Source of the DNA: Capsulimonadaceae bacterium
GTDB taxonomy: Bacteria; Armatimonadota; Armatimonadia; Armatimonadales; Capsulimonadaceae
Reading direction: 5' to 3'
Length of the DNA: 32,000 bases
NCBI GenBank assembly: GCA_965215505.1
Contig: OZ244065.1
Coordinates: 5,403,218 to 5,435,217, forward strand
Position numbers and translations under genes: made by a program. The notes beneath the pieces are model-generated. The model did not search any database. It saw only the letters and a list, made by a program, of their open reading frames with translations, and was not told the origin of the DNA. Numbering within the stretch: the first letter of the stretch is position 1; every line of letters starts with the position of its first letter. Below, one piece after another: positions 6,943-22,680 of this stretch.

Positions 6943-8519
6943 GGTTCCGCTCCCTGCTGGAGATCATTCGGCTGCGCCCATGGGGCGGTCCGCAGAACGG
7001 CCCGCATGGCGTCCGGCGTCATGCCCAGCTTATCCGCATTGGTCACCACGTCGCCGAGGTCTACGCCGTACCAGTTACGCTTGTGCGGGTCGGCCAGCCC
7101 GGCGACGTTCAGGCAGGCGATCTCGTCCGCGACCTGGGCACTGAAGCCGGGCCCCGCCGCTCCCCGCCGGACCCGCGCTGCCGCACACCGCAGGTTAGGC
7201 CCAAATTCAGCGTGGCCGGAGGCCAGGAAGCGGGTAACGAGGTGGGGTCGTTCCAACCGCCGGGCCATCTCGCTGTAGCTGGCCGCCGCGAAGTAGAACT
7301 GCGACAGGGCGGCGAAGATGGGGAAACGCGGCATGGCCGCGTAGCAGGCCCCGATGAAGTCCGCCGTCGCGTCCGCCTCTTGCAGTGTCAGTGCGCCGTA
7401 CTCCGCAAGCCTCGTCCCTAGCGTCTCCGTGTCCCAAGTTTCCTCGAAAATGCGCCCCAGGCGCTCGACGCCAAGCAGGGTGAGTGGAATGCCGGTGCTG
7501 AACAGCGGGTCCACGAAGGCCGCCGCCGAGGGCAGCAGCGCCCAACCCGACCCGGCGGCGGTGGGCGCGCGGTATGCGATTCGGGGCGTGTGGGTGAAGG
7601 GCCGCATCGGCACGGCCTCGGCGAACTGCGCGCCAACGGACGGGAATCGTGCCAGGAATCGACACCAGGCTGGCTCGCCTTCCGCTAGGTTTAGCTCTGC
7701 CGCCAGCGCACCCGTGACGGCGATGCCCGCACTCGTGACACCCGTGTCAAAGCGCAGTATCCACATCCATCCGCCCTCAAAGACATGATGCACGGCGGCA
7801 TCGTCGGCGGGGTAGGGGGGCGTGTCTGGATGCGAGAACTCCGGCATCGTGTCGCACCGCCGGACGCCGGCGAAGTGGGAGTAGAGGCTCTGCGTGGCCG
7901 GGTATTCGGCGAAGCCGGCTTCGGGCAGGCCGAGCGCCCTGCTCAGAAACCCGCGTGGCCCCGTCGCATCTATGACCAGCCGCGTCCGCACGGCGAACGC
8001 CTCCCCGGCTCGCTCCCCGGCCACCGTCGCCGTGCCGTCGCCGTGCCACACGGGCGCTGTCAGCGTCACCCCGTCCCAATACTCCGCCCCGACGCCGACC
8101 GCCTCACCCACCAGGAACTCATCCACATCGGCCCGCAGCCAGTGCGTGTCCGCCGCCTCATCGTGCGGGCTGGCCGCGACCATGAGCTGGTCGCTCCGGT
8201 CCGGCGTAGCCCGAAATGCCTGCCCCTGCTCGTGGTGGAAATAAGTAAAACCGCGCTTCAGCCCACAGCCGACATGTGGGTAGGCGCGCTGCCACGGCCC
8301 ATACGCGGACAGCGGCAGCAGGCGGGGGAGGTCATAGCGCGTGGCGAGCTGTTCCAGAAGCAGGTTCGCGAGCGGGGAAGTAGACTCGCCGATGGCGAAG
8401 CGCGGGTGTTTGCCCTTTTCGAGCAGTAGCACGGACAGGCCGATGCGGCGGGCGACCATCGCCAATAGCGAGCCGCCGTAGCCGGAGCCGATGATCGTCA
8501 GGTCATAGTCGGTGTTCAT
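6939..8519 (-). CDS. FAD-dependent oxidoreductase of the flavin-dependent halogenase / geranylgeranyl-reductase-like superfamily
   Basis: N-terminal dinucleotide fold DLTIIGSGYGGSLLA..LLLEKGKHPRFAIGEST.P, as in PltA/CmlS-type halogenases. Partial WxWxIP-type motif EGGWMWILRF. Lies 13 nt downstream of the radical SAM stop. Confidence 0.8.
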   Translation of the reverse strand: MNTDYDLTIIGSGYGGSLLAMVARRIGLSVLLLEKGKHPRFAIGESTSPLANLLLEQLATRYDLPRLLPLSAYGPWQRAYPHVGCGLKRGFTYFHHEQGQAFRATPDRSDQLMVAASPHDEAADTHWLRADVDEFLVGEAVGVGAEYWDGVTLTAPVWHGDGTATVAGERAGEAFAVRTRLVIDATGPRGFLSRALGLPEAGFAEYPATQSLYSHFAGVRRCDTMPEFSHPDTPPYPADDAAVHHVFEGGWMWILRFDTGVTSAGIAVTGALAAELNLAEGEPAWCRFLARFPSVGAQFAEAVPMRPFTHTPRIAYRAPTAAGSGWALLPSAAAFVDPLFSTGIPLTLLGVERLGRIFEETWDTETLGTRLAEYGALTLQEADATADFIGACYAAMPRFPIFAALSQFYFAAASYSEMARRLERPHLVTRFLASGHAEFGPNLRCAAARVRRGAAGPGFSAQVADEIACLNVAGLADPHKRNWYGVDLGDVVTNADKLGMTPDAMRAVLRTAPWAQPNDLQQGAEP

Positions 8520-8532
8520 GGCGCGCGCCGTT

Positions 8533-9573
8533 CTAATTAAGCCTTCGTACAGAAGGGCGGGGGCCCTCCCCTACGCCGCCCGTGTAGGGGCGCGATTCAT
8601 CGCGCCCTCTTGTCTCATCTTCCGCCTGTTCACACTCCGCGCATACCACCAGCGGTGGCACCTGCTGCGTCCGGTTCATCCCGGCCAGCCGCGCCGCGCG
8701 GGCTGGGGAGCAGGCGCAGGTGTAAAACTTCTCGATGTCCCACAGGTCGGCGAAGACGCAGCCCCGTTTTAGCCCAAGGCCGTATTCCTGCACCGCTTCC
8801 AGCGAGGGCAGGGTCGGCGGGGAGTAGTCGCCCGAGGCGGCCAGCGCCTCCATCGCGCCGTTCCCGGCCCGTGTCGGGATGACGCAGCAGACGGACGCGC
8901 CGCCTTCAAAGGCAGCGTCGAGGGAGCGTTTGGCCCAAATGATGCCCTCGGCTTCGGTCAGGAACGGGGGGCGCAGGAGCAGGAAGACGCGCAGGGCGAT
9001 GTCATTATCGGCAAGGAAGGCCGCCGCGCGCTCAAAGTCCGCGACGGTGAACCGCTTGTTCAGCCGGGCCAGGACGTCCGGGTGAACCGTTTCCAGGCCG
9101 ACGGCGACTTCCAGACGCGCGGCCAGCAGATCACGGAAGCGCAGGCAGTGGTCGCCCAGCAGGGCGGGATGGCACTCGACGACCACGCGCTCGAAGCCGC
9201 GCACGGCCTCGGCGATCTCGGCGTAGTCTTCGGGCGGGACGGCCTGCGGGTCGAAGAAGCTGCCCGCGTTGTAGAGCTTGACCTGCCGCGCAGGCGGCAG
9301 CCGGTCGAGCGCATAACGGATTTGCGCGGCGATGGCCCCGCTCGGGACGCGGGTGTCCAGCGTGTTCTGCCATAGATCGCACATCAGGCACCGGTACGGG
9401 CACTCGCGGTTCGTCAGGAAGACCGTCGCCGTCGGGATGGTTCCCCCCAAAGGCCCCGCCTCCTCCTCCCACAAGAAGGCGTAGGAACGCATCGGGTCGA
9501 GCGCGTTCTTCGGGCCGCGCCTCCCAACAATCCAGCGGGTGCGCTCGCTCGGGGAGGCAGGATAGGCGGTCAT
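8533..9573 (-). CDS. radical SAM enzyme (Elp3-like / TIGR01210-RaSEA-like by eye)
   Basis: CxxxCxxC cluster motif in FLTNRECPYRCLMCDLW. KLYNAGSFFDPQAVPPED resembles the SGSFLD motif of the TIGR01210-type group. Start moved to ATG 9573, which forms an ATGA overlap with the upstream AsnB-like stop. The ORF-track start at 9705 would overlap that gene by 136 nt. The C-terminal tail (..RGRDESRPYTGGVGEG..) is translated from a REP-like repeat. Confidence 0.85.
   Translation of the reverse strand: MTAYPASPSERTRWIVGRRGPKNALDPMRSYAFLWEEEAGPLGGTIPTATVFLTNRECPYRCLMCDLWQNTLDTRVPSGAIAAQIRYALDRLPPARQVKLYNAGSFFDPQAVPPEDYAEIAEAVRGFERVVVECHPALLGDHCLRFRDLLAARLEVAVGLETVHPDVLARLNKRFTVADFERAAAFLADNDIALRVFLLLRPPFLTEAEGIIWAKRSLDAAFEGGASVCCVIPTRAGNGAMEALAASGDYSPPTLPSLEAVQEYGLGLKRGCVFADLWDIEKFYTCACSPARAARLAGMNRTQQVPPLVVCAECEQAEDETRGRDESRPYTGGVGEGPRPSVRRLN
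8568..8607. repeat. GTAG-headed palindromic (REP-like) unit
   Basis: CCCCTAC(8568-8574)...GTAGGGGCGCGAttcaTCGCGCCC (8584-8607). Overlaps the 3' end of the radical SAM ORF. Confidence 0.7.
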
Positions 9574-10982
9574 CGGGCGACGGGGAACGGGCGCGACAGG
9601 TCGTTGCCGGAGAAGCGCTCGCCGGCCGGGTCCCATGCTTCGCGCAGGCGGTCCTGCCACTGGCGCAGGAAGACCGACCGGCACCACGCCTTGCTGACGC
9701 GCCACTTGCGGTAGGTGTCGCCGCCTGCCCCGTTTACGTCCCCGCCGACGCCGTCCTGGAACCGGCGCTTGGGCGGGGTGGGCATTGTGATCCCGGTCAC
9801 GGCTAAGACGCCTGCACGGACGATGTCGGCCTTCAAAGTGTACAGCCGCTCGACGCTGCCGTCTAATATCTCCTCGAAGGGAATAGCGAGCGAGGCGGCC
9901 AGGGCCGCCCGGTCGGTGTAGGGGGAGAAAGCATCAAAGCCGAAGTGCTGCCCCGGCGCGTAGGTGCGGACGTAGGAGCGCGACAGGCCGCCCGAGTAGG
10001 TCAGGCTGTGCTTGATGGCGTCCACGCCCCAGCCCTCCTGGTACAGCAAGGGGTTCCGCAGGACGCTGGACAGGGTCAGATCGGAGTCCTCCAGCGGGTA
10101 GTCCTTCAGGTTTTCGTCGCCGCCGTCGCCGTCGAGCAGGTACTTCATCGCCGGGTAGCGGTCGCGGATGCCGCGCAGGAGGCACAGGGCGACGGCGGCG
10201 CACTCGACATCTAAGGGATGGTAGTCCTCGATGACTTGGATGGCTTCTTCCATGTCAACTGACTCGGCACTTGCCTTGACGACTTCCCACTGGCCCGCCA
10301 GCCCCAGTTCACGCACGATGCCTTCGGCCTGGGCGGCGTCCTGGCCGCCGCCGAGGTCCAGGGTGAAGCCGCGGACCATGTCCGGGTCACGGCCCATCAG
10401 CGTCAGGGCGTGGCGGGCCAGCAGGAAGACCGAAGTGCTGTCCACGCCGCCCGAAAAGGCCAGCCCGATCGGCTCGCCCTCGGGGATCGTGCCGAGCCAG
10501 CGCGTCAAGGCTTCCAGGGCCGCCGCGACGTAGGCCGCGCCCAGGGCTTCCACGTCGGCGGGACCCGTGCCGATGGCGGGGTGGAAGAACCGGTGGTAGC
10601 GCGGGGCCGGGTCGGGGCAGCCGATCTGGTCTATCTCGATCAGGTAGTGGGCGGGCACCATGCGCGTGTAGAGCGGGTCGAACTGCCACCCGATCTTCTC
10701 CGAGCGGCACCACTCGAACAGCGAGTCGATGCGGTCCGAGGCGATCAGGAACGGCCCGTGGAACATCTTGGCGACGAAGTAGCGCAGGGGGGCGCCGACC
10801 GTGCGCGCCATCCGCACCGTCTGCCCGTCGCGGGCCGTGGCCGCGAAATGTCCCTGCGCCCGGCCCAAAGTCTCTACATCGCCCGCCCGCACCGCCTCAG
10901 TCAACTGCGTCGGCGTCAAGGCCGGCATCGCGGACTGCTGTGGGCCGACCAGGTCCACCAAACGCTCCACACCTAATAACAT
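9570..10982 (-). CDS. asparagine synthetase B-like ATP-pyrophosphatase (adenylating) enzyme lacking the N-terminal Cys glutaminase nucleophile (beta-lactam-synthetase/lasso-cyclase-like architecture)
   Basis: PP-loop LAFSGGVDSTSVF and AsnB-like LLDGDGGDENLKDY. The N-terminus is MLLGVERL.., not the MCG.. start of glutaminase-active AsnB. A degenerate Ntn-like segment follows (GHFAATARDGQTVRMARTVGAPLRYF..IASDRIDSL). GGAG lies about 10 nt upstream of ATG 10982. Confidence 0.85.
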   Translation of the reverse strand: MLLGVERLVDLVGPQQSAMPALTPTQLTEAVRAGDVETLGRAQGHFAATARDGQTVRMARTVGAPLRYFVAKMFHGPFLIASDRIDSLFEWCRSEKIGWQFDPLYTRMVPAHYLIEIDQIGCPDPAPRYHRFFHPAIGTGPADVEALGAAYVAAALEALTRWLGTIPEGEPIGLAFSGGVDSTSVFLLARHALTLMGRDPDMVRGFTLDLGGGQDAAQAEGIVRELGLAGQWEVVKASAESVDMEEAIQVIEDYHPLDVECAAVALCLLRGIRDRYPAMKYLLDGDGGDENLKDYPLEDSDLTLSSVLRNPLLYQEGWGVDAIKHSLTYSGGLSRSYVRTYAPGQHFGFDAFSPYTDRAALAASLAIPFEEILDGSVERLYTLKADIVRAGVLAVTGITMPTPPKRRFQDGVGGDVNGAGGDTYRKWRVSKAWCRSVFLRQWQDRLREAWDPAGERFSGNDLSRPFPVAR

Positions 10983-11023
10983 TGGAAGGTCTCCATCCTA
11001 ACGGGACGATAATGATAGGCTTG

Positions 11024-11052
11024 ATTATACCTGCACGGACCGGCTATTTGAC
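11024..11052 (-). promoter_or_regulatory. promoter candidate for the AsnB-like/rSAM/flavoprotein/GH51 operon
   Basis: Minus-strand TATAAT (plus-strand attata at 11024-11029), about 42 nt upstream of ATG 10982. The -35 is weak: GTCAAA at 17-nt spacing (11047-11052). Confidence 0.3.
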
Positions 11053-11065
11053 CGACGATGCGGGC

Positions 11066-11386
11066 CTAGACGGTCAGCCCGGCCAGCGGGTTCCCACCAG
11101 CGGTGGGCGGGGCAACCGCTGTGACGCTGTCGGAGTCCTGGCTGATGCGCCCAATCGCCGCCACCGTCTTGTTCAGTGACGCGCCCGCAATGGGCGGGGC
11201 CGCGCCCGGCGGCAGCGGCATCTTTTCCGCCGCCACTGTCAGCGCGACCTCCCCCTCGGGTGGCCTGACGGCGGCCAGCGCGGCGGCGAGTGTGAGCGGC
11301 TTGACGGGTGCAGCCTCCTGGGCCGGGGCCGCCAGTGGGAGGAAGGCCAGGACCGGCAGCAAGGGGGCGAAGCGGGCAAGGGCCAT
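11066..11386 (-). CDS. small (106 aa) Ala/Pro-rich secreted protein, unknown function
   Basis: ATG 11386 is preceded by a perfect AGGAGG 7 nt upstream; this SD overlaps the TAA stop of the cyclase gene (ttAGGAGGtcttccATG). Signal-peptide-like MALARFAPLLPVLAFLPLAAPAQE. The composition is low-complexity and I recognise no family. The longer ORF-track version (start 11533) overlaps the cyclase gene. Confidence 0.5.
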   Translation of the reverse strand: MALARFAPLLPVLAFLPLAAPAQEAAPVKPLTLAAALAAVRPPEGEVALTVAAEKMPLPPGAAPPIAGASLNKTVAAIGRISQDSDSVTAVAPPTAGGNPLAGLTV

Positions 11387-11396
11387 GGAAGACCTC

Positions 11397-13337
11397 CTAA
11401 GAAGCGGGCGGCGCTTGGAACCGGCGCACATGATAGGTGGGCAGGCTGCCGAAGTCGCGGGCCAGGTCGAGCGTGCCGATGTACTCGCAGGCGAAGGCGG
11501 GCCGCCACTCCCGCCCCGCCTGTCGGGCCTCATGGGCGGCGGCCTGCTGCTCCGCCGTCAGCAGGGCGGCGAACTGCTCCGAGGCGTAGATGTTGCCCGG
11601 AACCGTGACCGGCTCGATGCGGGCCGCCCGGTTGACGTGCGAGCCGTAGTAGTTGAGCGCGCCGGTGATCGGGTCTATCCCCTCGAAGACCGGCCCGGCG
11701 TGCAGGCCGATGCGGATGCTCATCTCGCGCGGCAGGCCGTACTCGGCCCAGTCGGTGTCGCAGACGACCTCCTGGAGCGCCAGGGCGTATTCGGCCAGCC
11801 GGGTGGCGTCGTCCATCAGGACGAAGATGGCGTCCCCCCAGGTGTTGACGAACCCGTCCGTCGGCGGCAGGCTCCCCGCCACGCGCTCCAGGAAGCTGAA
11901 CATGAAGGCCGGCATCCGGTCCTCCTGGAGCTGGCTGTAGCCGACCACGTCGGCGAAAAGCAGCGTCTTGACCTGACGGCGGATCGCGGCTTCGGTGCGC
12001 GGGGCGTGTGGCTGCGGAAGGTGCGGGGCGGGCGTGACGCCGGGCTGAGACGGGGGGCCGAGCGGGATGACGCGGCGGCGGGCTGGGTCGGGCCAGCCCG
12101 CCACCAGGTCGGCCGTCCCGCCTGCCAATGCGCTCTCCCGGCCGTCCCAGACCGCCAGCAGGACGGGGGCGGCCCCCAGCGGCTGGGCGGCCAGCGTCGC
12201 GTACCCGAGCAGCATCCGGCCCATCCAGGCGAAGAGGCTGTCATCGCCCTGCACCGACTCTTCACTGAGGTACTTGACCGAGGCGGCCCGCCCCAGCGCC
12301 GCCTCGAAACGGGCGACCCACTGCGGGCCGGCATAGCGGACGCTGGCGTCGAGGAAATCAGCCGGGGAATAGGGCAGCACGAGATGGACCTCGGCACCGC
12401 GCGCCTGCATCGCCTCGATGAACAGCAGGTCCGACCCGCAGGCCGCCGAGCAGTAGCCGATCCGGGCGTCCGTCTCCTCCAGGTGCCGGACGATCTCGGC
12501 CCGCACGGCCTCTTCCTGGGACTCGGGGAATCGCGGGACGGCTCGGCCCGGTCGGTCCAGCATGTGGCCGACGAACACCAGTACGGCGGGAGGCGTCATC
12601 ATCTGAAGGAGCGGGTCGGGGACGGGGAACCCGTGGGCGGCCAGGAGTTGGAGCTGCCGGCGGGAGGCGGCGACGGCCCCGTAGCGCCGCCCCGCCAGCG
12701 AGGCGGCGCGCGCGTAAGCCGCCTGCGCTTCCGCCCCCCGGCCGAGCAGCAGGAATGCCTCGCCGCGCGTCGCCCAATGCCAGTACCGGTCGGCTTCGGA
12801 ACCGGGAGCGGCCTGCCCGGTGGCCTCCAGCACCGACCCGGCGAGCCGAGCCGCCTGCGCCCGGTCGCCGACGATCCAGGACAGCGTCGCGGCATTGATG
12901 CCGGTCCAGGAGCCGCCCGACGCCTCGAACCCGCGCCCGTAGGCGTCGCGGGCGCATCGGGCGTCCTCCACCCGCCCCGAACGACGCCACACGTCCTTGT
13001 AGACGCGGGCGATCAGCCCCAGCGTCTCCTCGTCCGCCTCCGCCCCATGGCGCAGGGGCACGCTGTCCCTCCGCATCGGCGCGGGGTAGAGGTCTTCCAG
13101 AACGCCCTGGGCCTCCGCCAGTGCGCCCGCGCGCAGCAGGGCCAGGGCGGTCGCCTGACGCAGCCGCGCGCTGTCCGGGAACCGGCGCAGCGCCTTCTGC
13201 GCCAGGTCGTGCGCCCTAAACGTCTGGCCCTGGTCGAGCATCGTCCGGACCGCCGCCTCGGCCTCCGCCTGGGAAGAAGGAAAGTCGGGCGGCTGCGGCG
13301 AACGGGGATCTAGCGACTGGCTGGGAAGTAAAGGCAT
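11397..13337 (-). CDS. multidomain signalling protein: DUF4071-type (MAP3K TRAFs-binding-like) TPR region + SLOG/LOG-like Rossmannoid module + class III nucleotidyl cyclase domain
   Basis: N-terminal region: EETLGLIARVYKDVWRR and GFEASGGSWTGINAATLSWI, which are DUF4071 signatures as I remember them. Middle region: VLVFVGHMLD..GYCSAACGSDLLFIEA..EVHLVLPY..LLAVWDG..LAGGTADLV. C-terminal region is the class III cyclase: VKTLLFADVVGYSQL, NTWGDAIFVL, IRIGLHAGPV, YYGSHVNRAARIE. Start moved to ATG 13337 (GGAG 6-7 nt upstream), because the 13338-13799 extension overlaps the RyR gene on the other strand. Confidence 0.9.
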   Translation of the reverse strand: MPLLPSQSLDPRSPQPPDFPSSQAEAEAAVRTMLDQGQTFRAHDLAQKALRRFPDSARLRQATALALLRAGALAEAQGVLEDLYPAPMRRDSVPLRHGAEADEETLGLIARVYKDVWRRSGRVEDARCARDAYGRGFEASGGSWTGINAATLSWIVGDRAQAARLAGSVLEATGQAAPGSEADRYWHWATRGEAFLLLGRGAEAQAAYARAASLAGRRYGAVAASRRQLQLLAAHGFPVPDPLLQMMTPPAVLVFVGHMLDRPGRAVPRFPESQEEAVRAEIVRHLEETDARIGYCSAACGSDLLFIEAMQARGAEVHLVLPYSPADFLDASVRYAGPQWVARFEAALGRAASVKYLSEESVQGDDSLFAWMGRMLLGYATLAAQPLGAAPVLLAVWDGRESALAGGTADLVAGWPDPARRRVIPLGPPSQPGVTPAPHLPQPHAPRTEAAIRRQVKTLLFADVVGYSQLQEDRMPAFMFSFLERVAGSLPPTDGFVNTWGDAIFVLMDDATRLAEYALALQEVVCDTDWAEYGLPREMSIRIGLHAGPVFEGIDPITGALNYYGSHVNRAARIEPVTVPGNIYASEQFAALLTAEQQAAAHEARQAGREWRPAFACEYIGTLDLARDFGSLPTYHVRRFQAPPAS

Positions 13338-13376: not shown

Positions 13377-13715
13377 ATGACTGCAAGACCGGAAAAACGC
13401 AAGGCCGCTTTCTCCAAGGCAGCACAGTATGTGCCGGCCCCGCGCGACACCTCCGCCGTCCACCTCACCGCCGAGATGAGCGCCCTGACGGAAGACCTGG
13501 CGAAGAACACGCACGAAGTCTGGGCGGCCCAGCGCATGGCCGAGGGCTGGCGCTACGGGCCGTGCCGGGATGAGGAGCGCATGGAACACCCCGGACTCGT
13601 CCCCTACGAGGACCTGCCCGACTCGGAGAAGGAGTACGACCGCAGCACCGCCCTGGAGACCCTGCGGCTGATCCTCGCCCTGGGCTACAGCATCTGCCGC
13701 GCCGACCCCCCGTGA
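13377..13715 (+). CDS. RyR (ryanodine-receptor repeat) domain protein, 112 aa
   Basis: Close by-eye match to the bacterial RyR domain pattern: LTEDLAKNTHEVWAAQRMAEGWRYGPCRDEERMEHPGLVPYEDLPDSEKEYDRSTALETLRLILALGYSI. There is no clear SD at ATG 13377, so an internal start (MSALTEDL) is possible. Confidence 0.85.
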   Translation: MTARPEKRKAAFSKAAQYVPAPRDTSAVHLTAEMSALTEDLAKNTHEVWAAQRMAEGWRYGPCRDEERMEHPGLVPYEDLPDSEKEYDRSTALETLRLILALGYSICRADPP

Positions 13716-13741
13716 TACCCCCAGGATGAACGCCTGGGCGT

Positions 13742-13781
13742 GAAACATGTCACACCCGGTGCGATGTTTCTGCTGTATAAT
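13742..13781 (+). promoter_or_regulatory. -10 element (TATAAT) with an adjacent 7-bp inverted repeat, upstream of the heme/HAMP sensor gene
   Basis: Perfect TATAAT at 13776-13781, 24 nt before ATG 13805. GAAACAT (13742-13748) and ATGTTTC (13764-13770) form an inverted repeat covering the -35 region. No TTGACA-like -35 is present. Confidence 0.4.
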
Positions 13782-13804
13782 GTACCGGAAGAGAAACACA
13801 TCCC

Positions 13805-14683
13805 ATGAACATCCTCGCCAAGTTCAACCTGATGATGGTGACCGTCTTCACGCTCGGGCTGATCGCCGTGTGCCTAGTGACGAACTCGCTGCTCGAAGGC
13901 AACGCCCAGCAGCAGGTCGTGGACAACGCGCGCATCATGATGGAGACCGCCCTCGCGATGCGCCAGTACACCAGCAAGCAGATCAAGCCGCTGCTCGACG
14001 GCCAGAACGTACACGGGTTCCTGCCGCAGACCGTGCCCGCCTATGCGGCCACGCAGGGATTTAATGCATTACGCGAGAAGTACCCCCAGTACACCTACAA
14101 AGAGGCGACGCTCGACCCAACCAACGTCCTGCAAGACAAGGCGACGGACTGGGAGGCGGACGTCGTCAGCCAGTTCAAAAACCAGGGGGAGACCAAGGAG
14201 ATCATCGGCATCCGGCAGAGCGCGACCGGTCCGTCGCTCTACCTGAGCCACCCCATTCGGATCACCGACGCCGCCTGCCTGACCTGCCACAGCACGCCGG
14301 CCGTCGCCCCCGCCTCCATGATCCAGAAGTACGGGCCGGACCACGGGTTCAACTGGCACCAGGGCGACGTGGTCGGGGCGCAGATCGTCTCGGTCCCGAT
14401 GTCGCTGCCCGAGGCCATGGCCCGGCGAGCCTTTCTGGCCGTACTCGGGTCGCTCGTCGCCGCCTTCGCCGTCACCCTGCTCCTGCTCAACGTCATGCTG
14501 ACCCTGCTCGTCATCCGCCCGGTCACACGACTCGCGCGGGTCGCCGACCAGATCAGCCAGGGGAGCCGCGAGGTGGAGGACCTCCCGGTCCGGGGGCATG
14601 ACGAGATCGCCGGGCTGGCCGTGTCCTTCAACCGGATGCAGCGCTCACTCAAGAAGGCCATGACGATGCTGGATGAGGTGTAG
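13805..14683 (+). CDS. membrane sensor: TM - extracytoplasmic DUF3365/Tll0287-like c-type heme domain (CxxCH) - TM - HAMP, with no output domain
   Basis: TM1 is MMVTVFTLGLIAVCLV. DUF3365-like TALAMRQYTSKQIKPLL..FLPQTVPAYAAT. Heme-c motif C-L-T-C-H encoded at 14276-14290. TM2 is FLAVLGSLVAAFAVTLLLLNVMLTLLV. HAMP is IRPVTRLARVADQIS..DEIAGLAVSFNRMQRSL. The protein ends about 10 residues after the HAMP domain. Confidence 0.9.
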   Translation: MNILAKFNLMMVTVFTLGLIAVCLVTNSLLEGNAQQQVVDNARIMMETALAMRQYTSKQIKPLLDGQNVHGFLPQTVPAYAATQGFNALREKYPQYTYKEATLDPTNVLQDKATDWEADVVSQFKNQGETKEIIGIRQSATGPSLYLSHPIRITDAACLTCHSTPAVAPASMIQKYGPDHGFNWHQGDVVGAQIVSVPMSLPEAMARRAFLAVLGSLVAAFAVTLLLLNVMLTLLVIRPVTRLARVADQISQGSREVEDLPVRGHDEIAGLAVSFNRMQRSLKKAMTMLDEV

Positions 14684-14691
14684 GGGGGAAG

Positions 14692-15615
14692 ATGACGCAC
14701 CACGACGTTTTCATCAGCTACTCGACGCTCGACAAGCCGATCTCCGATGCCGTCTGCGCGGCCCTGGAAGGTCAAGGCATCCGGTGCTGGGTGGCCCCGC
14801 GCGACATCACGCCCGGCCAGGACTGGAGCGACGCCATCATTGACGCCATCGCGGACTGCCGCGTCTGCCTCCTGATCCTGTCCACAGCCTCCAATCAGTC
14901 GGACCAGGTCAAGCGGGAGGTGCAGAACGCGGTGAGCGAGGCGAAGCCCATCCTACCGTTCCGCATCGAGGATGTCGCCCTGTCCAAGCACATGCGCTAC
15001 TTCATCGGCACGCCGCACTGGCTGGACGCCCTGACGCCGCCGATGGAGCGCCACCTCCAGAGGATGGTGGAGACGGTGTCCGGATTGATCGCCGCGCTCG
15101 ACGACAAGGCGGGCGAGGCCGAACCGCCCCCCGCCCTGCCGCGCGCCTGTTTCCTCTGGGATGATGCGCGCCTCGCCCGCATCGAGGCCGAATTGCGCCA
15201 GTTCGTGGGGCCGCTGGGCCGCACCCTGGTCGCGGAAGCGGCGGTCGCTGCGAACGGCTACGAAGACCTGGGCCGCCGCCTGGCGGAACACATCCTGTCC
15301 GAACGGGAGCGCGCGACCTTCCTTGCCCGGTGTCAGGCCCTGACGCCCGCCGCCCCACCGCCCGCGTCTCGCCCGGCCCCGGACGCTGAGGTCATCAGCC
15401 CCGAGGCCGTCGCCGCCGCCGAGAAGGCGCTGGCACATTACGTCGGCCCGCTGGCCCGAACGCTGGCGAAACGGGCGGCGCGCACGGCGGCGGGGCCGGC
15501 CGAGTTCTACCGCCTGCTGGCGGATGAACTCCCCGCGCCCGCCGAGAAGGCCGCGTTTCTGGCTCAGTTCCAGGGCGGCAGGGGCGGCGGGGCGGCGGGC
15601 CGGGCGAACAGGTAG
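14692..15615 (+). CDS. TIR-domain protein with two C-terminal ~58-aa tandem repeats
   Basis: TIR_2-type N-terminus DVFISYSTLDKPISDAVCAALEGQGIRCWVAPRDITPGQDWSDAIIDAI..CLLILS..SNQSDQVKREVQNA, with a candidate catalytic Glu at residue 76. Repeats at aa 158-215 and 236-294 (nt 15163-15336 and 15397-15573) share L..(F/Y)VGPL.RTL...A...A.......LA......E...FLA..Q. ATG 14692 lies 8 nt after the sensor stop and has a GGGGGAAG SD. Confidence 0.9.
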   Translation: MTHHDVFISYSTLDKPISDAVCAALEGQGIRCWVAPRDITPGQDWSDAIIDAIADCRVCLLILSTASNQSDQVKREVQNAVSEAKPILPFRIEDVALSKHMRYFIGTPHWLDALTPPMERHLQRMVETVSGLIAALDDKAGEAEPPPALPRACFLWDDARLARIEAELRQFVGPLGRTLVAEAAVAANGYEDLGRRLAEHILSERERATFLARCQALTPAAPPPASRPAPDAEVISPEAVAAAEKALAHYVGPLARTLAKRAARTAAGPAEFYRLLADELPAPAEKAAFLAQFQGGRGGGAAGRANR

Positions 15616-16793
15616 CCCTGCACGAAGTCCGCGCCGTTCGCCTTCGCCCATTCCCATTCTTCGCGGCGCTCGATGCCTTCCGCGACCGTTTTCAGCCCAA
15701 GCCCCTGCGCGGTTTCGAGCAGCTTCCGGGCGACCAGCGCCTTGTCCTTCTCACGGTCCACGCAGTCGAGTAGGGCGCGATCTATCTTGACATAATCCGG
15801 GCGTAGTTCCAACAAAGCAGACAGCGAGGAGTAGCCTGCCCCCACGTCGTCGAGCGCGACACCGAAGCCGTTGTCGCGGTAGTACCCCACAATCCTCTGC
15901 ATCAGTGCCATTTCGGGTAGGTGTTCGCTCTCGATGATCTCGAACACGATGCGCCCACGCTCCAGCCCCAGCTCGTCCACCATGCGGACCGTGCTGTTGA
16001 GACACGAGTGGGGCGAGTAGATCGCATTGGGCGTGAAATTAATGAATGTCTTAGCGGGGAGCCTGTGCTTCGCCGCCGAAACGACGGCCGACCGGCGGGC
16101 GGCGAGGTCGAGCTGGAAGAGCAGGCCCGCCCCGTCCGCCAGGTCGAGCATCAGGCCGGGCGAAACCGCACTCCCCTCGACCTCGGCCCGCATCAGGCAC
16201 TCATGCCCGTGCAGGATGGAAGGGTCCGTACAGTCCAGGATCGGCTGGAAGACCGAATACAGCCGCCCGCCGCGCAGGATGTCCAGCAGCCATTCGCTGC
16301 GTGCCTTGGCGGCGAAGTCGGGCAGCGAGTCGATCTCAAAGCGGTCGCCCCACTGTGGCAGCAGGCCGTCGGGCTGGAAGTGGGCGCGCGCGTCGCGCTG
16401 CTCGGTGGAAGAGAGCCTGGCTATGATCGGGGCCAGCAGCGGCGCGAGGCTTCCGCCCCCGACGCGGACGCGGATCGTCCCCTCCTGCTCCTGGTGGTCC
16501 CAGCGCGACTGGGTCAGAAACTCCAATATCTTGCCGAGCGAGTAGGTGTGAGGCAGACGTATTTCCAGGGTCCCCGGCCCCCGCAAGGGCGTGGGCAGCA
16601 CCTCGCACCTTTGGCAGCCCGGCGCCCCTTCGGGGACGTCTTCCTCATTGGGCAGCGTCATCCCATGATAAACGCCCTCGAGTGCGTCCGCCTTCAACAG
16701 CTCCTCGGCGGGAGTGGTCGGTATGGCCGTCGGCACAGGGCCGTGCGTGTAAATGATCTTGTCCGCGTTCTTCCGATCGGGCATCTCGCCCAT
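15564..16793 (-). CDS. EAL-domain cyclic-di-GMP phosphodiesterase with ~170-aa N-terminal region of unknown function
   Basis: EAL-domain signatures: FQPILD, ECLMR (EALxR position), FINFTPN, FEIIESE, ALDDVGAGYSSL, KIDR, VAEGIE, FVQGYLFARP. The 3' end overlaps the TIR gene's 3' end by 52 nt. Confidence 0.9.
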   Translation of the reverse strand: MGEMPDRKNADKIIYTHGPVPTAIPTTPAEELLKADALEGVYHGMTLPNEEDVPEGAPGCQRCEVLPTPLRGPGTLEIRLPHTYSLGKILEFLTQSRWDHQEQEGTIRVRVGGGSLAPLLAPIIARLSSTEQRDARAHFQPDGLLPQWGDRFEIDSLPDFAAKARSEWLLDILRGGRLYSVFQPILDCTDPSILHGHECLMRAEVEGSAVSPGLMLDLADGAGLLFQLDLAARRSAVVSAAKHRLPAKTFINFTPNAIYSPHSCLNSTVRMVDELGLERGRIVFEIIESEHLPEMALMQRIVGYYRDNGFGVALDDVGAGYSSLSALLELRPDYVKIDRALLDCVDREKDKALVARKLLETAQGLGLKTVAEGIERREEWEWAKANGADFVQGYLFARPAAPPPLPPWN

Positions 16794-22023: not shown

Positions 22024-22680
22024 TTGGACGAAAATGGGAGTGGGGCGGCGGACGAAGTCTCCACGGGATGGACCGCGACTGACGGCCTCGTGACCGGCAT
22101 GCTGTCGTCGGATGCCTCCACGCGCGAGGGGGAGTGGGCGGAAGCCCTTACCGGGGAGAAACTGGAGAGGAAGTTCCAGGCCGCCTGGCAGTTGTTTCAG
22201 AGCGTCGAGGCGCAGGTGCAGGTGGCAGACCGTAAGGTGCAGGCGATCTTCGCGGCGAACACGCTGCTGGTCGCTGCCGTTTCCTTCCAGAATCAGGGCA
22301 TCATGCCGGCCCATGCCCACAACCTCAGCCTGTCGGCGGCGGTGGGTCTGGCCGCGCGCCTCCTCCTGCTGGCCTGCATCTGCGCCTCCTACCTTTCCGC
22401 CATTGTGGCCCTCTTCCCCCGCCTGCGCCCCGTAAAGACACGAACGCACTCGCTGCTCTTCTTCGGGGACATCGCCGCCCTGCCGGGGGCGGAGTTTGCG
22501 GAAACCTTCCTGGCGATGACGACGGCGGACAAGGTCCGGCAGGTCCTGCGTCAGACCCACGACGTCTCCCGCGTGGTCGCGGAGAAGTACAAGTGGACGC
22601 GCCGCTCCGGGACCGCCCTCGTCTTGTCTCTCCTGCTGTGGATCGTCGTCCAGGCCGTCACCATCCTCGCCGGGGCTTGA
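22024..22680 (+). CDS. membrane protein resembling the DUF5706 / Pycsar-effector transmembrane (PycTM-type) family
   Basis: The pattern VADRKVQAIFAANTLLVAAVSF ... LSAIVALFPRLRP....HSLLFFGDIA....EF......T....RQVLRQTHDVSRVVAEKYKWTRRSGTALVLSLLLWIV matches my memory of DUF5706 (aD.Ka...; PR......lfFgdI; K..W.r). About 3 predicted TM helices. TTG 22024 has AAGGGGG about 7 nt upstream. Confidence 0.7.
   Translation: MDENGSGAADEVSTGWTATDGLVTGMLSSDASTREGEWAEALTGEKLERKFQAAWQLFQSVEAQVQVADRKVQAIFAANTLLVAAVSFQNQGIMPAHAHNLSLSAAVGLAARLLLLACICASYLSAIVALFPRLRPVKTRTHSLLFFGDIAALPGAEFAETFLAMTTADKVRQVLRQTHDVSRVVAEKYKWTRRSGTALVLSLLLWIVVQAVTILAGA

Follow-up and report, generated by a model that had tools for sequence, protein, structure and literature searches.

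An output-less heme receptor encoded beside a TIR protein with a kinase-type docking module: a putative four-gene signalling module

What does a membrane sensor that stops just after its HAMP domain signal to, when the gene directly behind it encodes a TIR-domain protein? The question is raised by positions 13377-15615 of the 32,000-nucleotide stretch of DNA analysed here (the window). An initial annotation, made from the sequence alone, described three same-strand genes for a RyR-domain protein, a heme-c/HAMP sensor and a TIR protein with two repeats of unnamed family, and proposed that the TIR protein supplies the missing sensor output in trans, through its repeats. The three ORFs were confirmed and public gene calls on an identical contig give the same products; the domains, the CLTCH motif, the 8-nt spacer, Glu76 and the two repeats all held, as did a sensor stop about ten residues past HAMP (HAMP ends at aa 283 of 292 by Pfam boundaries, and nine residues therefore remain). 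A system of three genes proved too small, since a divergent gene for a TPR-S/SLOG/cyclase protein belongs to the module (Table 1). In our reading, four genes would form one signalling module, the TPR-S/SLOG/cyclase gene on the minus strand followed on the plus strand by those for RyR, a Cache_heme-HAMP (CHH) receptor and a TIR protein with two DUF8082 repeats, each part being already known from elsewhere. On balance, we lean towards a pathway in which heme-ligand sensing acts on a docked TIR protein whose NAD-derived signal is received by the RyR and TPR-S/SLOG-cyclase proteins, with activities and binding inferred and no biochemistry behind them, whether for heme attachment, NO binding, HAMP-TIR binding, NAD+ turnover or signal binding. 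An "immune-type" TIR pathway would then seem to be plugged into an environmental sensor, because an output-less sensor is paired with a TIR protein bearing a kinase-type docking module, and because the neighbouring genes resemble receivers of a TIR-made, NAD-derived signal.

Table 1. Coordinates of the module features, numbered from the first letter of the window
Feature	Position	Strand	Remarks
TPR-S/SLOG-fold/class III cyclase gene	11397..13337	-	646-aa protein; divergent neighbour outside 13377-15615
RyR-domain gene	13377..13715	+	112 aa; stand-alone; without hydrophobic segment
Intergenic spacer, RyR to sensor	13716..13804	+	89 nt; TATAAT at 13776-13781 (direct sequence reading)
CHH receptor (Cache_heme-HAMP) gene	13805..14683	+	292 aa; no output domain
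CLTCH c-type heme attachment motif	14276..14290	+	Sensor residues 158-162
HAMP domain of sensor	14498..14653	+	Pfam, aa 232-283; proposed DUF8082 docking surface
Sensor-TIR spacer GGGGGAAG	14684..14691	+	8 nt, Shine-Dalgarno-like
TIR domain	14692..15111	+	aa 1-140 of 307-aa protein (ORF 14692-15615); Glu76 codon 14917-14919
DUF8082 repeat 1	15163..15339	+	aa 158-216, helical bundle
VGPLGRTLVAEAAV recognition-helix motif, repeat 1	15205-15246	+	aa 172-185
DUF8082 repeat 2	15400..15582	+	aa 237-297, helical bundle
VGPLARTLAKRAAR motif, repeat 2	15442-15483	+	aa 251-264

The sensor displays all the features of the CHH family, i.e., a CXXCH-bearing Cache_heme domain, two flanking transmembrane segments, a C-terminal HAMP and no output. 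Its periplasmic heme domain is a Tll0287-like domain (PF11845, aa 33-198; Pfam 2.9e-39) bracketed by hydrophobic segments at aa ~6-30 (TM1) and ~209-238 (TM2), and the HAMP is recognised at 1.1e-11. C158, C161 and H162 of the CLTCH motif are invariant in an alignment of 20 homologues. The family comprises more than 5,600 homologues. In a set of 120 of these, nearly all combine the Tll0287-like plus HAMP architecture, without output domain, with a length of ~291 aa (289-304, with three at 300-353), and they share an end point, with identities of 53-95%; the sensor GC3 of 0.92 is of coding type. The Cache_heme domain and the CHH family have been defined recently (PMC12889525 and 10.64898/2026.05.25.727664), and current classification places the heme domain among NO-binding Cache domains, not PAS-like ones. 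The receptor architecture is thereby shown, while the identity of its ligand is inferred from the characterised Pseudomonas azotoformans homologue. 

Which partner the receptor would use is indicated by the repeats of the neighbouring protein. In P. azotoformans, a Ser/Thr kinase binds the HAMP of its CHH receptor with nanomolar affinity through a C-terminal dyad (10.64898/2026.05.25.727664), and cryo-EM at 3.47 A shows this module docked on the HAMP (bioRxiv 10.64898/2026.05.25.727664, May 2026). The tandem repeats of the TIR protein, left unnamed in the initial annotation, are DUF8082 / PF26309 in precomputed Pfam annotation, and an HMM derived exclusively from the repeat units of kinases encoded next to CHH receptors gives the TIR protein 103 bits over two domains (best of 200 shuffles, 5.8 bits). 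The published kinase motifs IGPLARFLVRKSLN / IGPIARIVVSRALR (10.64898/2026.05.25.727664) have counterparts in VGPLGRTLVAEAAV / VGPLARTLAKRAAR, and the AF2 model places the repeats in two helical bundles joined by disordered linkers. The repeats of the window TIR protein are thus homologous to the HAMP-recognition dyad of the kinase.

A repeat-bearing neighbour is present at 63/82 CHH loci, in most cases co-oriented with the sensor gene and 5-60 nt behind it, with enzyme heads assigned as Pkinase (48), cyclase (9) and TIR (4), while the best 150 representatives of 1,171 matches carry 41 Pkinase, 13 cyclase, 10 TIR, one CHAT and one SulP-STAS head. When only loci reached via the TIR protein, and not via the sensor, are counted, the sensor adjoins 12/13 TIR+repeat loci. 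Two sensor clades conserve the CHH-TIR adjacency, which occurs in either gene order and among unrelated flanks. Spacing is similarly tight in relatives (1 nt in loci L001 and L002, 11 nt in L085); in the window, the sensor stop TAG (14681-14683) is followed by GGGGGAAG and the TIR ATG at 14692. Many HAMP positions (P239, A247, D248, S251, G253, G264, D266, E267, L271, F275, R277, M278, S281 and L282) are invariant across TIR-paired and kinase-paired sensors. Coupling in trans through the repeats is strongly supported, because the dyad module docks a kinase on a CHH HAMP and the neighbour carries this module at 63 of the 82 loci. The TIR protein is therefore probably docked on HAMP via DUF8082; homology and conserved adjacency are shown, and binding is inferred by analogy with the kinase complex. 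The DUF8082 dyad would represent a common plug with interchangeable enzyme heads, namely kinase, cyclase, TIR and rarely others.

The head of this protein is a TIR_2 domain (aa 6-114; Pfam 1.4e-22), and its best Foldseek matches are all TIR domains. In alignment, the helix-C Glu of the solved TIR 6wt6 has its counterpart in Glu76, and R75, E76 and the stretch flanking them are invariant among 26 TIR-DUF8082 relatives, down to 41% identity; E76 is invariant in a second alignment too. The helix-C Glu expected of NAD+-cleaving TIRs is thus present, activity on NAD+ being inferred. All tested ADPR-cyclising TIRs have an aromatic residue at Glu-4 (10.1101/2022.05.07.491051), giving the WxxxE motif, which the window TIR does not have: its Glu-4 residue is Gln72 (QxxxE), as in 92/103 scored relatives. 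Since this QxxxE clade is without the Glu-4 aromatic, the product may be plain ADPR, something new, or nothing.

The RyR domain (PF02026, aa 18-106; Pfam 1.7e-33) matches repeat 1 of the animal RyR2 R12 region at 72 bits. RyR-domain proteins bind or cleave 2'/3'cADPR, and the ligand and catalytic residues of RyDEP are H75, W78, H100 and D117 (PMC13232231); H46, W49, H71 and D88 of the window protein match them by spacing only, without formal alignment. RyR domains occur in 14/90 TIR-containing loci versus 0/77 CHH loci without TIR (p = 1e-4), with the caveat that the TIR loci are shorter than the CHH loci compared. They are found stand-alone or fused to K+ channels, PAS-HisKA or TPR-S/SLOG/cyclase proteins: a stand-alone RyR adjoins TIR or sensor in L001, L003, L083 and L087, the last keeping the RyR-TIR adjacency even without the sensor, and a K+ channel with RCK and RyR adjoins TIR in sister loci L004, L083, L086, L102 and L142. 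It is possible that the RyR protein is a binder, hydrolase or sensor subunit for a TIR-derived ADPR-type signal, an activity that remains inferred. The gap behind this gene does carry the TATAAT initially annotated, which might be an internal promoter for the sensor-TIR pair; the evidence is weak and not statistically distinctive, as the window holds two TATAAT against 0.68 expected, 18/100 shuffles reach two, and a promoter scan identified no -35 partner for this one.

The divergent protein combines TPR-S (aa ~35-145; Pfam 3.4e-18) with a Guanylate_cyc / class III cyclase domain (aa ~450-590; Pfam 3.8e-12). Its middle domain (aa ~245-425) has no match to Pfam or PDB by sequence. The AF2 model of this domain (pLDDT 89.9) has YpsA 2nx2 as top Foldseek match (E 9e-7, probability 1.0), followed by DprA, TM1055, ShosA, LOG and MoCo carrier protein at TM-scores of about 0.4-0.5. 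A SLOG fold of the YpsA/DprA/LOG type is thus predicted from the model, with a modest TM-score (~0.5), and ligand binding is inferred. By inspection, the cyclase catalytic residues are present, with D463 and D502 for the two metal-binding Asp and N569 and R573 for the transition-state pair, while in VNTWGDA an Asn, nearly invariant in the family, takes the place of the substrate-specifying Lys. The nucleotide made cannot be assigned, because the specificity position is neither Lys (adenylate cyclase) nor Glu (guanylate cyclase).

In L001, L002 and L003, where flanks differ, this gene again adjoins the sensor in divergent orientation, and as a neighbour it is conserved only in one Armatimonadota-like clade (the window and L001-L003). 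In sister lineages, the CHH-TIR pair is joined instead to a RyR-bearing K+ channel and SLOG/SLATT-like membrane proteins, SLOG heading SLATT-like proteins adjoining CHH-TIR in L083, L004, L086, L139 and L091. SLOG of the window type is found only in TIR loci (9/90 versus 0/77 CHH loci without TIR, p = 0.004), and the single-repeat CHH-TIR loci L085, L108 and L163 have no recognisable RyR, SLOG or SLATT neighbour. In homologues P0342, P0351 and L164, an N-terminal RyR is fused to TPR-S/SLOG/cyclase, and these genes adjoin TIR genes. The RyR and cyclase genes of the window correspond to these single fused proteins. In known systems, a TPR domain has been named as the part of ThsI, the Thoeris VIII effector, that presumably senses cADPR, and SLATT as the type VII effector (10.64898/2025.12.03.692087). 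The TPR-S/SLOG/cyclase protein is a possible receiver and output of the TIR signal, a role that is inferred.

The proposed pathway would operate in four steps. A receptor with c-type heme in its periplasmic Cache_heme domain would sense a heme ligand, by analogy with the P. azotoformans homologue most likely NO, possibly another ligand or a redox change, and the induced change would pass via TM2 to the cytoplasmic, output-less HAMP. The two DUF8082 bundles would hold the TIR protein on the HAMP dimer, one per HAMP subunit. The state of the receptor would then control TIR activity; here the arguments for and against weigh equally, and no evidence exists that the sensor gates TIR catalysis. TIR NADase sites require two or more TIR domains. 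The likeliest route would be a ligand-dependent change in TIR pairing across neighbouring receptors, because such a site needs at least two TIRs and the dyad gives one per receptor dimer. The authors of the kinase system consider that the receptor probably alters the accessibility of HAMP as a substrate, and not kinase activity (10.64898/2026.05.25.727664); this logic is not transferable to a TIR and counts against a receptor-controlled one. Finally, the TIR would convert NAD+ into an ADPR-type messenger of unknown structure, which the RyR protein would bind or hydrolyse, as reset or buffer or as a detachable sensor subunit, and which the TPR-S and SLOG protein would read, the cyclase then making a cyclic nucleotide as second-tier output. 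That the messenger is read by these two proteins could equally prove right or wrong, being inferred from gene linkage and published biochemistry on homologous domains.

Set against these results, the central proposal of the initial annotation, a sensor output supplied in trans by the TIR protein, is supported, with binding inferred. It survived the checks proposed with it: the sensor-TIR adjacency is conserved, the catalytic Glu stands in alignment, and the sensor is not a truncated pseudogene. The claim of an undescribed system held in part, as trans-output was published for kinases in 2026 and only the TIR head is undescribed. The PAS-like assignment of the heme domain failed, nothing shows the proposed gating of TIR catalysis, and the suggestion of a defence role is unsupported by genomic context.

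We read the module as physiological signal transduction, which appears likelier than phage defence. Its neighbours encode glycoside hydrolases, peptidases and ABC transporters (ribosomal genes in L002), and no defence genes flank it in the window, L001-L004 or L083-L087. PADLOC gives no match for the sensor and only weak, generic ones for the TIR (SAVED_TIR 6e-7, ThsB 7e-4); the RyR protein matches only Cas4c, below threshold (E 0.052), and the cyclase weakly matches PycC (3.5e-5). Pycsar, defined by PycC beside PycTM or PycTIR, was considered and rejected: the PycC match is weak, and a PycTM-like gene, at a distance of 6.4 kb, has no counterpart in related loci.

Among alternative explanations, an unlikely one is that only the CHH-TIR pair is a functional unit, the docked TIR being a simple NADase which, when triggered by the sensor, would reduce NAD+ locally or yield ADPR, with RyR and cyclase as independent neighbours. 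In its favour, the presence of QxxxE where cyclising TIRs have WxxxE points to an NADase without cyclising activity, several CHH-TIR loci are without RyR, SLOG and SLATT neighbours, and the cyclase neighbour is limited to one clade. Against it, the enrichment of RyR (p = 1e-4) and of SLOG of this type (p = 0.004) is confined to TIR loci, fusions of RyR, TPR-S, SLOG and cyclase lie beside unrelated TIR genes, and L087 retains the RyR-TIR adjacency in the absence of the sensor.

A system for phage defence or abortive infection working on Thoeris principles is also unlikely. In it, the membrane sensor would respond to a disturbance of envelope or redox state linked to infection, the TIR would make an immune signal or deplete NAD+, RyR would prevent self-activation, and the TPR-S/SLOG protein would be a killing or arrest effector. 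TIR together with TPR, SLOG and SLATT is indeed the parts list of Thoeris I, VII and VIII, close relatives carry the module at different genomic places, and the weak PADLOC matches (SAVED_TIR, ThsB, PycC) and the PycTM-like gene point the same way. However, no inspected locus has a defence-island context, PycTM is absent from related loci, and PADLOC offers no sensor match and only a sub-threshold one for RyR. Moreover, by far the most partners of the sensor family are ordinary Ser/Thr kinases and cyclases, its characterised member is an NO sensor (10.64898/2026.05.25.727664), and the outputs seen (a cyclase, K+ channels and proteins with PAS-HisKA) are those usual in physiological signalling.

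Very unlikely is a TIR acting as a non-catalytic adaptor that recruits another TIR or partner to the receptor, as in animal TLR adaptors: MAL and MyD88 are among its top structural neighbours and the cyclisation Trp is missing, but R75, E76 and their long flanking stretch are invariant down to 41% identity, the window cluster has no second TIR gene, and the linkage to the nucleotide-sensor domains RyR, SLOG and TPR-S is difficult to account for unless a small molecule is produced. That the sensor derives by decay from a longer kinase or cyclase, with accidental adjacency, rests solely on the general rule that HAMP normally precedes an output domain, and is all but excluded by thousands of output-less homologues of uniform length and end point at 53-95% identity, by the coding-type GC3 and by the conserved partner gene.

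Returning to the preferred reading of a four-gene signalling module, the closest known system is CHH-STPK of P. azotoformans (Deshpande et al., 10.64898/2026.05.25.727664), which has the same receptor (TM, CXXCH c-heme Cache, TM, HAMP, stop), a partner likewise encoded by the adjacent gene, and in that partner the same C-terminal pair of helical bundles, each of ~50-60 aa, with a recognition helix of GPxAxxLV type and with long flexible linkers between the parts. In contrast, the window partner has a TIR_2 head and no kinase domain, whereas the published one is a PknB-like kinase phosphorylating HAMP; control logic must therefore differ, because a kinase can use HAMP as substrate and a TIR cannot. 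The window also has RyR and TPR-S/SLOG/cyclase genes instead of a PP2C phosphatase, and its lineage is Armatimonadota-like, the published one proteobacterial. TIR is not mentioned in 10.64898/2026.05.25.727664 or PMC12889525, and no description of trans-coupling between a CHH receptor and a TIR head was found in the literature searched. What is undescribed here is the TIR head on the CHH docking module, the trans-output principle itself having been published for kinases.

Thoeris systems combine TIR with ThsI (TPR and CMP-hydrolase) in type VIII, with the SLATT protein ThsH in type VII and with SLOG-containing ThsA in type I (10.64898/2025.12.03.692087). As in these, a TIR with conserved catalytic Glu is encoded near a TPR-S, SLOG and/or SLATT-type protein, and the gene arrangement is met, with the TPR-S and SLOG-fold protein encoded divergently upstream, only the RyR gene standing between it and the sensor-TIR pair; the likeness of TPR-S to the ThsI TPR is one of domain type only, without direct homology comparison. 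The window differs in its input, a transmembrane heme receptor holding the TIR via a docking module where the Thoeris TIR protein senses phage, in its output, a nucleotide cyclase (K+ channels in sister loci) and not a killing effector, in its flanks, which lack defence genes in the loci inspected, and in its QxxxE TIR.

The phage protein RyDEP (PMC13232231) is likewise a small, stand-alone RyR of R12 type, tied genetically to TIR signalling, and its His/Trp/His/Asp recur in the window protein at equal spacing, though without formal alignment. The window RyR differs in being chromosomal and in the same module as the TIR, from which we presume a role within the pathway, as reset, buffer or sensor, and not in counter-defence, its activity being inferred. 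A further likeness is with animal Ca2+ release through cADPR and the ryanodine receptor, where an NAD-derived messenger and a RyR-repeat domain on a cation channel recall the sister loci; direct binding of cADPR to animal RyR R12 is, to our knowledge, unproven, and the window RyR is stand-alone, the bacterial channels are of K+ type and the messenger is unidentified. Finally, as in H-NOX and NosP systems, a heme gas sensor without enzymatic domain would control an enzyme encoded next door; those sensors are cytoplasmic and carry heme b, while that of the window would be c-type and periplasmic, signalling across the membrane to a TIR enzyme.

The three plus-strand open reading frames recognised in the initial annotation hold with matching coordinates and lengths, and Pfam supports their assignment as a RyR-domain protein, a Tll0287-like + HAMP sensor with a CLTCH site, and a TIR-domain protein. 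Their GC3 of 0.87-0.92 is typical of coding sequence, and a public contig encoding identical sensor and TIR proteins carries the same gene calls. The heme domain of the sensor is bracketed by two hydrophobic segments, and direct reading places the spacer GGGGGAAG between the TAG stop codon of the sensor and the ATG of the TIR gene. The TATAAT pointed out before the sensor gene is present, but shows no excess over chance and lacks a -35 partner, and its reading as a promoter was dropped on these grounds.

Positions of genes and sequence features in the window and in the compared loci (L-numbers)
Feature	Locus	Position (nt)	Strand	Details
RyR-domain protein, 112 aa	window	13377-13715	+	Pfam RyR, 1.7e-33
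TATAAT	window	13776-13781		
Sensor, 292 aa	window	13805-14683	+	Pfam Tll0287-like, 2.9e-39, and HAMP, 1.1e-11; 9 residues left after HAMP
CLTCH, sensor residues 158-162	window	14276-14290	+	Cys, Cys and His invariant across homologues
TIR protein, 307 aa	window	14692-15615	+	Pfam TIR_2, 1.4e-22
QxxxE motif, TIR residues 72-76	window	14905-14919	+	
TPR-S + middle domain + class III cyclase, 646 aa	window	11397-13337	-	divergent; start 39 nt from RyR start
EAL gene	window	15564-16793	-	3' end overlaps that of the TIR gene by 52 nt (15564-15615)
Trp-halogenase-like FAD enzyme, radical SAM protein, asparagine-synthase-like protein	window	6939-10982	-	three successive genes; last two ORFs overlap at 9570-9705
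PycTM-like protein, 218 aa	window	22024-22680	+	PF18967, 2.8e-16
K+ channel (Ion_trans_2 + TrkA_N/RCK) + C-terminal RyR	L004	4272-6098		
Same	L083	9089-10891		
Same	L086	9019-10827		
Same	L102	2652-4517	-	
Same	L142	2501-4414	-	
Same	L142	595-2280	-	
PAS_4 + HisKA + RyR, ~385 aa	L095	5763-6929		adjoins QxxxE-clade TIR gene
Same	L104	670-1803		adjoins QxxxE-clade TIR gene
Same	L125	3633-4799		adjoins QxxxE-clade TIR gene
SLOG + SLATT-like protein	L083	10938-13043		
Same	L004	6178-8346		
Same	L086	~10884-13058		
Same	L139	2450-4330	-	
Same	L091	3-1856		
SLATT_1-like protein	L165	1246-2280		directly upstream of sensor
PhyH-family dioxygenase	L001	9798-10532		
Same	L136	2373-3233		
Same	L139	5940-6779		
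PGDYG-domain protein	L085	7686-8195		
RyR adjoining TIR-DUF8082	L087	6636-7867		no CHH gene within 7 kb

The sensor matches more than 5,600 database proteins. Its 120 best homologues (53-95% identity, many phyla) contain Tll0287-like and HAMP domains without any other domain and are nearly all about 291 aa long (289-304; three of 300-353), the HAMP region ranking among the best-conserved parts. Such length-uniform, output-less homologues and the conserved HAMP rule out a truncated pseudogene of a longer kinase or cyclase, a possibility initially left open, and the sensor is an intact family member. The nearest named relatives belong to Armatimonadota (Capsulimonadaceae, 68%; Abditibacterium, 58%). 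Two 2026 preprints (PMC12889525; 10.64898/2026.05.25.727664) renamed the heme domain Cache_heme and the architecture the Cache_heme-HAMP (CHH) receptor, and report a P. azotoformans member that binds NO.

A scan with the sensor alignment, taking one genome per species, gave 80 loci. Of 82 loci, 63 contain a match to the last 157 residues of the window TIR protein, almost always in a same-strand gene starting 5-60 nt downstream of the sensor; by Pfam, these 63 neighbours are 48 protein kinases, 9 class III cyclases, 4 TIR proteins and others with repeats only. A profile built from the kinase repeats alone scores the window TIR protein at 103 bits over two domains; among 200 shuffles the highest score is 5.8 bits. 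The repeat region, searched exhaustively against 1.84 billion representative proteins, returned 1,171 of them, and the heads among the best 150 are kinase (41), cyclase (13), TIR (10), CHAT protease (1) and SulP-STAS (1), the rest being short or repeat-only. The module is DUF8082, a helical repeat of ~58 aa, in newer Pfam annotation; a Pfam search of the repeats and of the cyclase middle domain up to E = 10, in a release without PF26309, gave no matches. In the AF2 model of the TIR protein, the TIR domain is followed by bundles 1 and 2, each preceded by a disordered linker; with the kinase-repeat profile, this model establishes as real the two C-terminal repeats initially described without a family name. 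Foldseek with this model matched the helical bundles to no solved structure in an April 2026 copy, apparently lacking the CHH-kinase cryo-EM entry.

According to a May 2026 preprint (10.64898/2026.05.25.727664), the kinase dyad, i.e., two C-terminal DUF8082 copies, binds the CHH receptor at nanomolar affinity, each HAMP subunit being contacted by one helical bundle via helices IGPLARFLVRKSLN and IGPIARIVVSRALR, and heme-bound NO increases phosphorylation of a HAMP threonine by the kinase. The window recognition helices are VGPLGRTLVAEAAV (aa 172-185) and VGPLARTLAKRAAR (aa 251-264). The initial annotation proposed that the missing output of the sensor is supplied in trans by the TIR protein through its repeats; this is strongly supported because of homology to the solved kinase complex, the binding itself being inferred and not shown. 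DUF8082 is further carried by one CHAT-protease protein, one SulP-STAS transporter and two ~1,600-aa proteins (representatives P0379-P0525), and the docking module may therefore recruit further heads. TIR-DUF8082 proteins exist as dyad (~300 aa) and single-repeat (~220-230 aa) forms, seen among entries P0138, P0158, P0163, P0176, P0183, P0207, P0219 and P0232 of the TIR-DUF8082 alignment A3 and at L061 2642-3322. These forms imply different TIR-to-receptor stoichiometries: judged from sequence alone, a dyad would provide one TIR per receptor dimer and the single-repeat form could place two.

The 120 best matches include about sixty 90%-identity clusters of TIR + DUF8082 proteins, and loci of these proteins were gathered through the TIR protein, independently of the sensor. 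The adjacency of sensor and TIR first noted in the window is conserved, in both gene orders and between unrelated flanks. The order is RyR, TIR, sensor in L083 and TIR, sensor in L086 (both Abditibacteriota), and sensor, TIR in Massilia (L085); sensor also adjoins TIR in metagenome contigs L101, L108, L131, L136, L139, L141, L151, L163 and L165. Flanks are wholly different, with ribosomal proteins in L002, isoamylase in L083 and IMP dehydrogenase in L085. Among the TIR + DUF8082 loci examined, only L087 lacks an adjoining sensor; alaS beside its RyR-TIR pair is broken into several ORFs, so the assembly there may be error-prone. On a neighbour-joining tree, TIR-paired sensors form two clades, one of Armatimonadota with the dyad and the other with a single repeat, and cyclase-paired sensors also group together. 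Since sensors cluster by partner, partner type is stable over long periods. In three CHH-TIR loci of different lineages, the gene immediately after the TIR gene encodes a PhyH-family dioxygenase, its place being taken in Massilia by a PGDYG-domain protein.

Glu76 of the window TIR falls on the helix-C Glu when aligned to a solved TIR, and does not vary within the family; this candidate catalytic residue hence holds in alignment, catalysis remaining an inference. The residue four positions before it is Gln, not Trp, in 92 of 103 relatives. The clade motif is S-x-Q-[VI]-[KR]-R-E (relatives P0121-P0240), as opposed to the WxxxE of other enzymatic TIRs, and this QxxxE clade is large, including fusions with FHA, TPR, FGE-sulfatase and beta-propeller domains. 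A metagenome scan with the TIR alignment yielded mostly other TIR fusions, kept as a control set. All cyclising TIRs tested have an aromatic residue four before the Glu (10.1101/2022.05.07.491051), and, given Gln at that position, the product of the window TIR is possibly not a cADPR isomer. The clade is biochemically unexplored, so the product may be new.

The TPR-S/middle domain/cyclase gene recurs at the corresponding position in L001, L002 and L003, all else around it differing. The AF2 model of the middle domain (pLDDT 89.9) has YpsA, DprA, LOG-family proteins, ShosA and MoCo carrier as best structural matches, and the domain is predicted from this model to belong to the SLOG superfamily; a PDB sequence search with it gave noise only. 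Single chains joining RyR, TPR-S, SLOG and cyclase (proteins P0342, P0351, P0338 and one in L164) amount to a fusion of the window's two divergent genes. These RyR-cyclase fusions adjoin TIR genes unrelated to CHH (TIR-SnoaL in L168, TIR-TPR in L170), a TIR gene also adjoining the fusion in L164. The RyR profile matches 14 of 90 TIR-containing loci versus none of 77 CHH loci without TIR (p = 1e-4), and a profile of the window-type SLOG, built on SLOG columns alone with the cyclase domain excluded, 9 of 90 versus none of 77 (p = 0.004), the TIR-free loci being nearly three times longer. By linkage, fusions and enrichment, the divergent gene likely belongs to the module, and the three-gene extent initially proposed held only in part.

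RyR occurs near TIR genes in four forms: alone, on K+ channel-RCK proteins, on PAS-HisKA proteins and on the cyclase protein. The K+ channel-RyR genes lie one or two genes from TIR genes, in three loci beside a CHH-TIR pair. No HATPase domain was detected in the PAS_4 + HisKA + RyR proteins (L095, L104, L125). Proteins of ~600-720 aa with an N-terminal SLOG of the window-cyclase type and weak SLATT/DUF4231 matches stand beside CHH-TIR pairs or TIR genes. RyR, SLOG and SLATT neighbours are missing at some single-repeat CHH-TIR loci.

The window RyR protein matches repeat 1 of the RyR2 R12 region with a score of 72 bits. Phage RyDEP RyR-domain proteins, described as homologous to R12 of animal RyRs, bind (sponges) or cleave (glycosidases) 2'cADPR and 3'cADPR by means of His75 and Asp117, Trp78 and His100 holding the ligand (PMC13232231). 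Window His46, Trp49, His71 and Asp88 are spaced identically to RyDEP His75, Trp78, His100 and Asp117, a comparison of spacing without formal alignment. Canonical cADPR is the signal of Thoeris VII, with a SLATT protein as effector, and of Thoeris VIII, whose effector contains a TPR; for the Thoeris TPR, a role in TIR signalling predicted by Burroughs and Aravind is cited there (10.64898/2025.12.03.692087). The source of TPR-S, Burroughs and Aravind 2020 (J Bacteriol), reportedly predicts that the TPR scaffold recognises NAD+-derived signals, and Pfam names the domain 'Tetratricopeptide Repeats-Sensor'. The role of TPR-S is thus inferred from the Pfam name, that citing sentence and the abstract of the 2020 paper. 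SLOG domains are established as sensors of TIR products (ThsA).

The convergent EAL gene, whose product has a 160-aa N-terminal region without assigned domain, was excluded from the module, being absent from L001-L003 and found only in a near-identical contig. The three genes starting with the Trp-halogenase-like enzyme could perhaps form a small biosynthetic cluster. The PycTM-like gene (Pycsar membrane effector) was rejected as a conserved partner, being gone from related loci. Its distance to the TPR-S/SLOG/cyclase gene is 6.4 kb; the cyclase encoded there carries Asn in the position of the substrate-specifying Lys and matches PycC of PADLOC weakly; a PycTM-cyclase link is conceivable.

That the module is a defence system appears unlikely. 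No locus inspected has the look of a defence island around the module, the usual partners of the sensor family are ordinary kinases and cyclases, and the outputs seen (cyclase, K+ channels, histidine-kinase-like proteins) are those of physiological signalling. In PADLOC the sensor has no match and RyR a sub-threshold one, and membership was dropped, resting on weak generic TIR and PycC matches alone.

The favoured reading is a signalling module in which architectures, homologies, adjacencies, fusions and enrichment statistics are shown and every binding and catalytic step is inferred. A heme ligand, probably NO, would act on the periplasmic Cache_heme domain and the signal would cross to HAMP, on which the DUF8082 dyad would hold the TIR pre-docked; the receptor state would set whether docked TIRs pair into active assemblies. 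The TIR would turn NAD+ into an ADPR-type messenger, read or reset by the RyR protein and the TPR-S/SLOG domains, and the cyclase would then emit a cyclic nucleotide. A bolder reading, held as somewhat less likely than not, is that environmental bacteria run a non-immune TIR second-messenger pathway, in which a heme/NO transmembrane receptor physically holds the TIR and its product is read by RyR-repeat, SLOG and TPR-S domains driving cyclases, K+ channels, PAS-HisKA proteins and SLATT pores. If so, TIR signalling would be a general signal-transduction currency beyond immunity, and the pathway would be the bacterial equivalent, perhaps even the ancestor, of the disputed connection in animals between NAD-derived messengers and RyR channels. 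In L004, L083, L086, L102 and L142, a RyR-repeat cation channel is paired with a TIR in bacteria.

TIR is unmentioned in both CHH papers (PMC12889525; 10.64898/2026.05.25.727664), and the Thoeris survey (10.64898/2025.12.03.692087) makes no mention of RyR domains, HAMP or DUF3365, 'ryanodine' being used for the animal cADPR channel only. The literature searched yielded no account of a transmembrane sensor with a TIR enzyme docked on it, and none of cellular RyR-domain proteins that belong with TIR genes as integral partners. If correct, this would be the first case found in which a defined transmembrane small-molecule sensor is wired directly to a TIR enzyme, and of high interest to the fields of TIR signalling, HAMP receptors and RyR repeats. 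The DUF8082 dyad would be a general plug connecting one receptor family to kinases, cyclases or TIR enzymes, a modular rule for output-less HAMP receptors. What activates bacterial TIRs is in most cases not known, and CHH-TIR would therefore offer a switch (NO or redox) that can be controlled when studying it. RyR-repeat domains, including those on K+ channels, would be tied to TIR signalling in cellular genomes, and whether RyR repeats bind NAD-derived messengers, a long-standing question, could then be tested in a simple bacterial system. The CHH-kinase system differs in that HAMP is itself the substrate of the kinase, and it provides no model for TIR switching. Each part of the module has a precedent from 2025-2026: the docking of kinases to CHH receptors, the binding of cADPR isomers by RyR domains, and the TPR and SLATT effectors of TIR signals.
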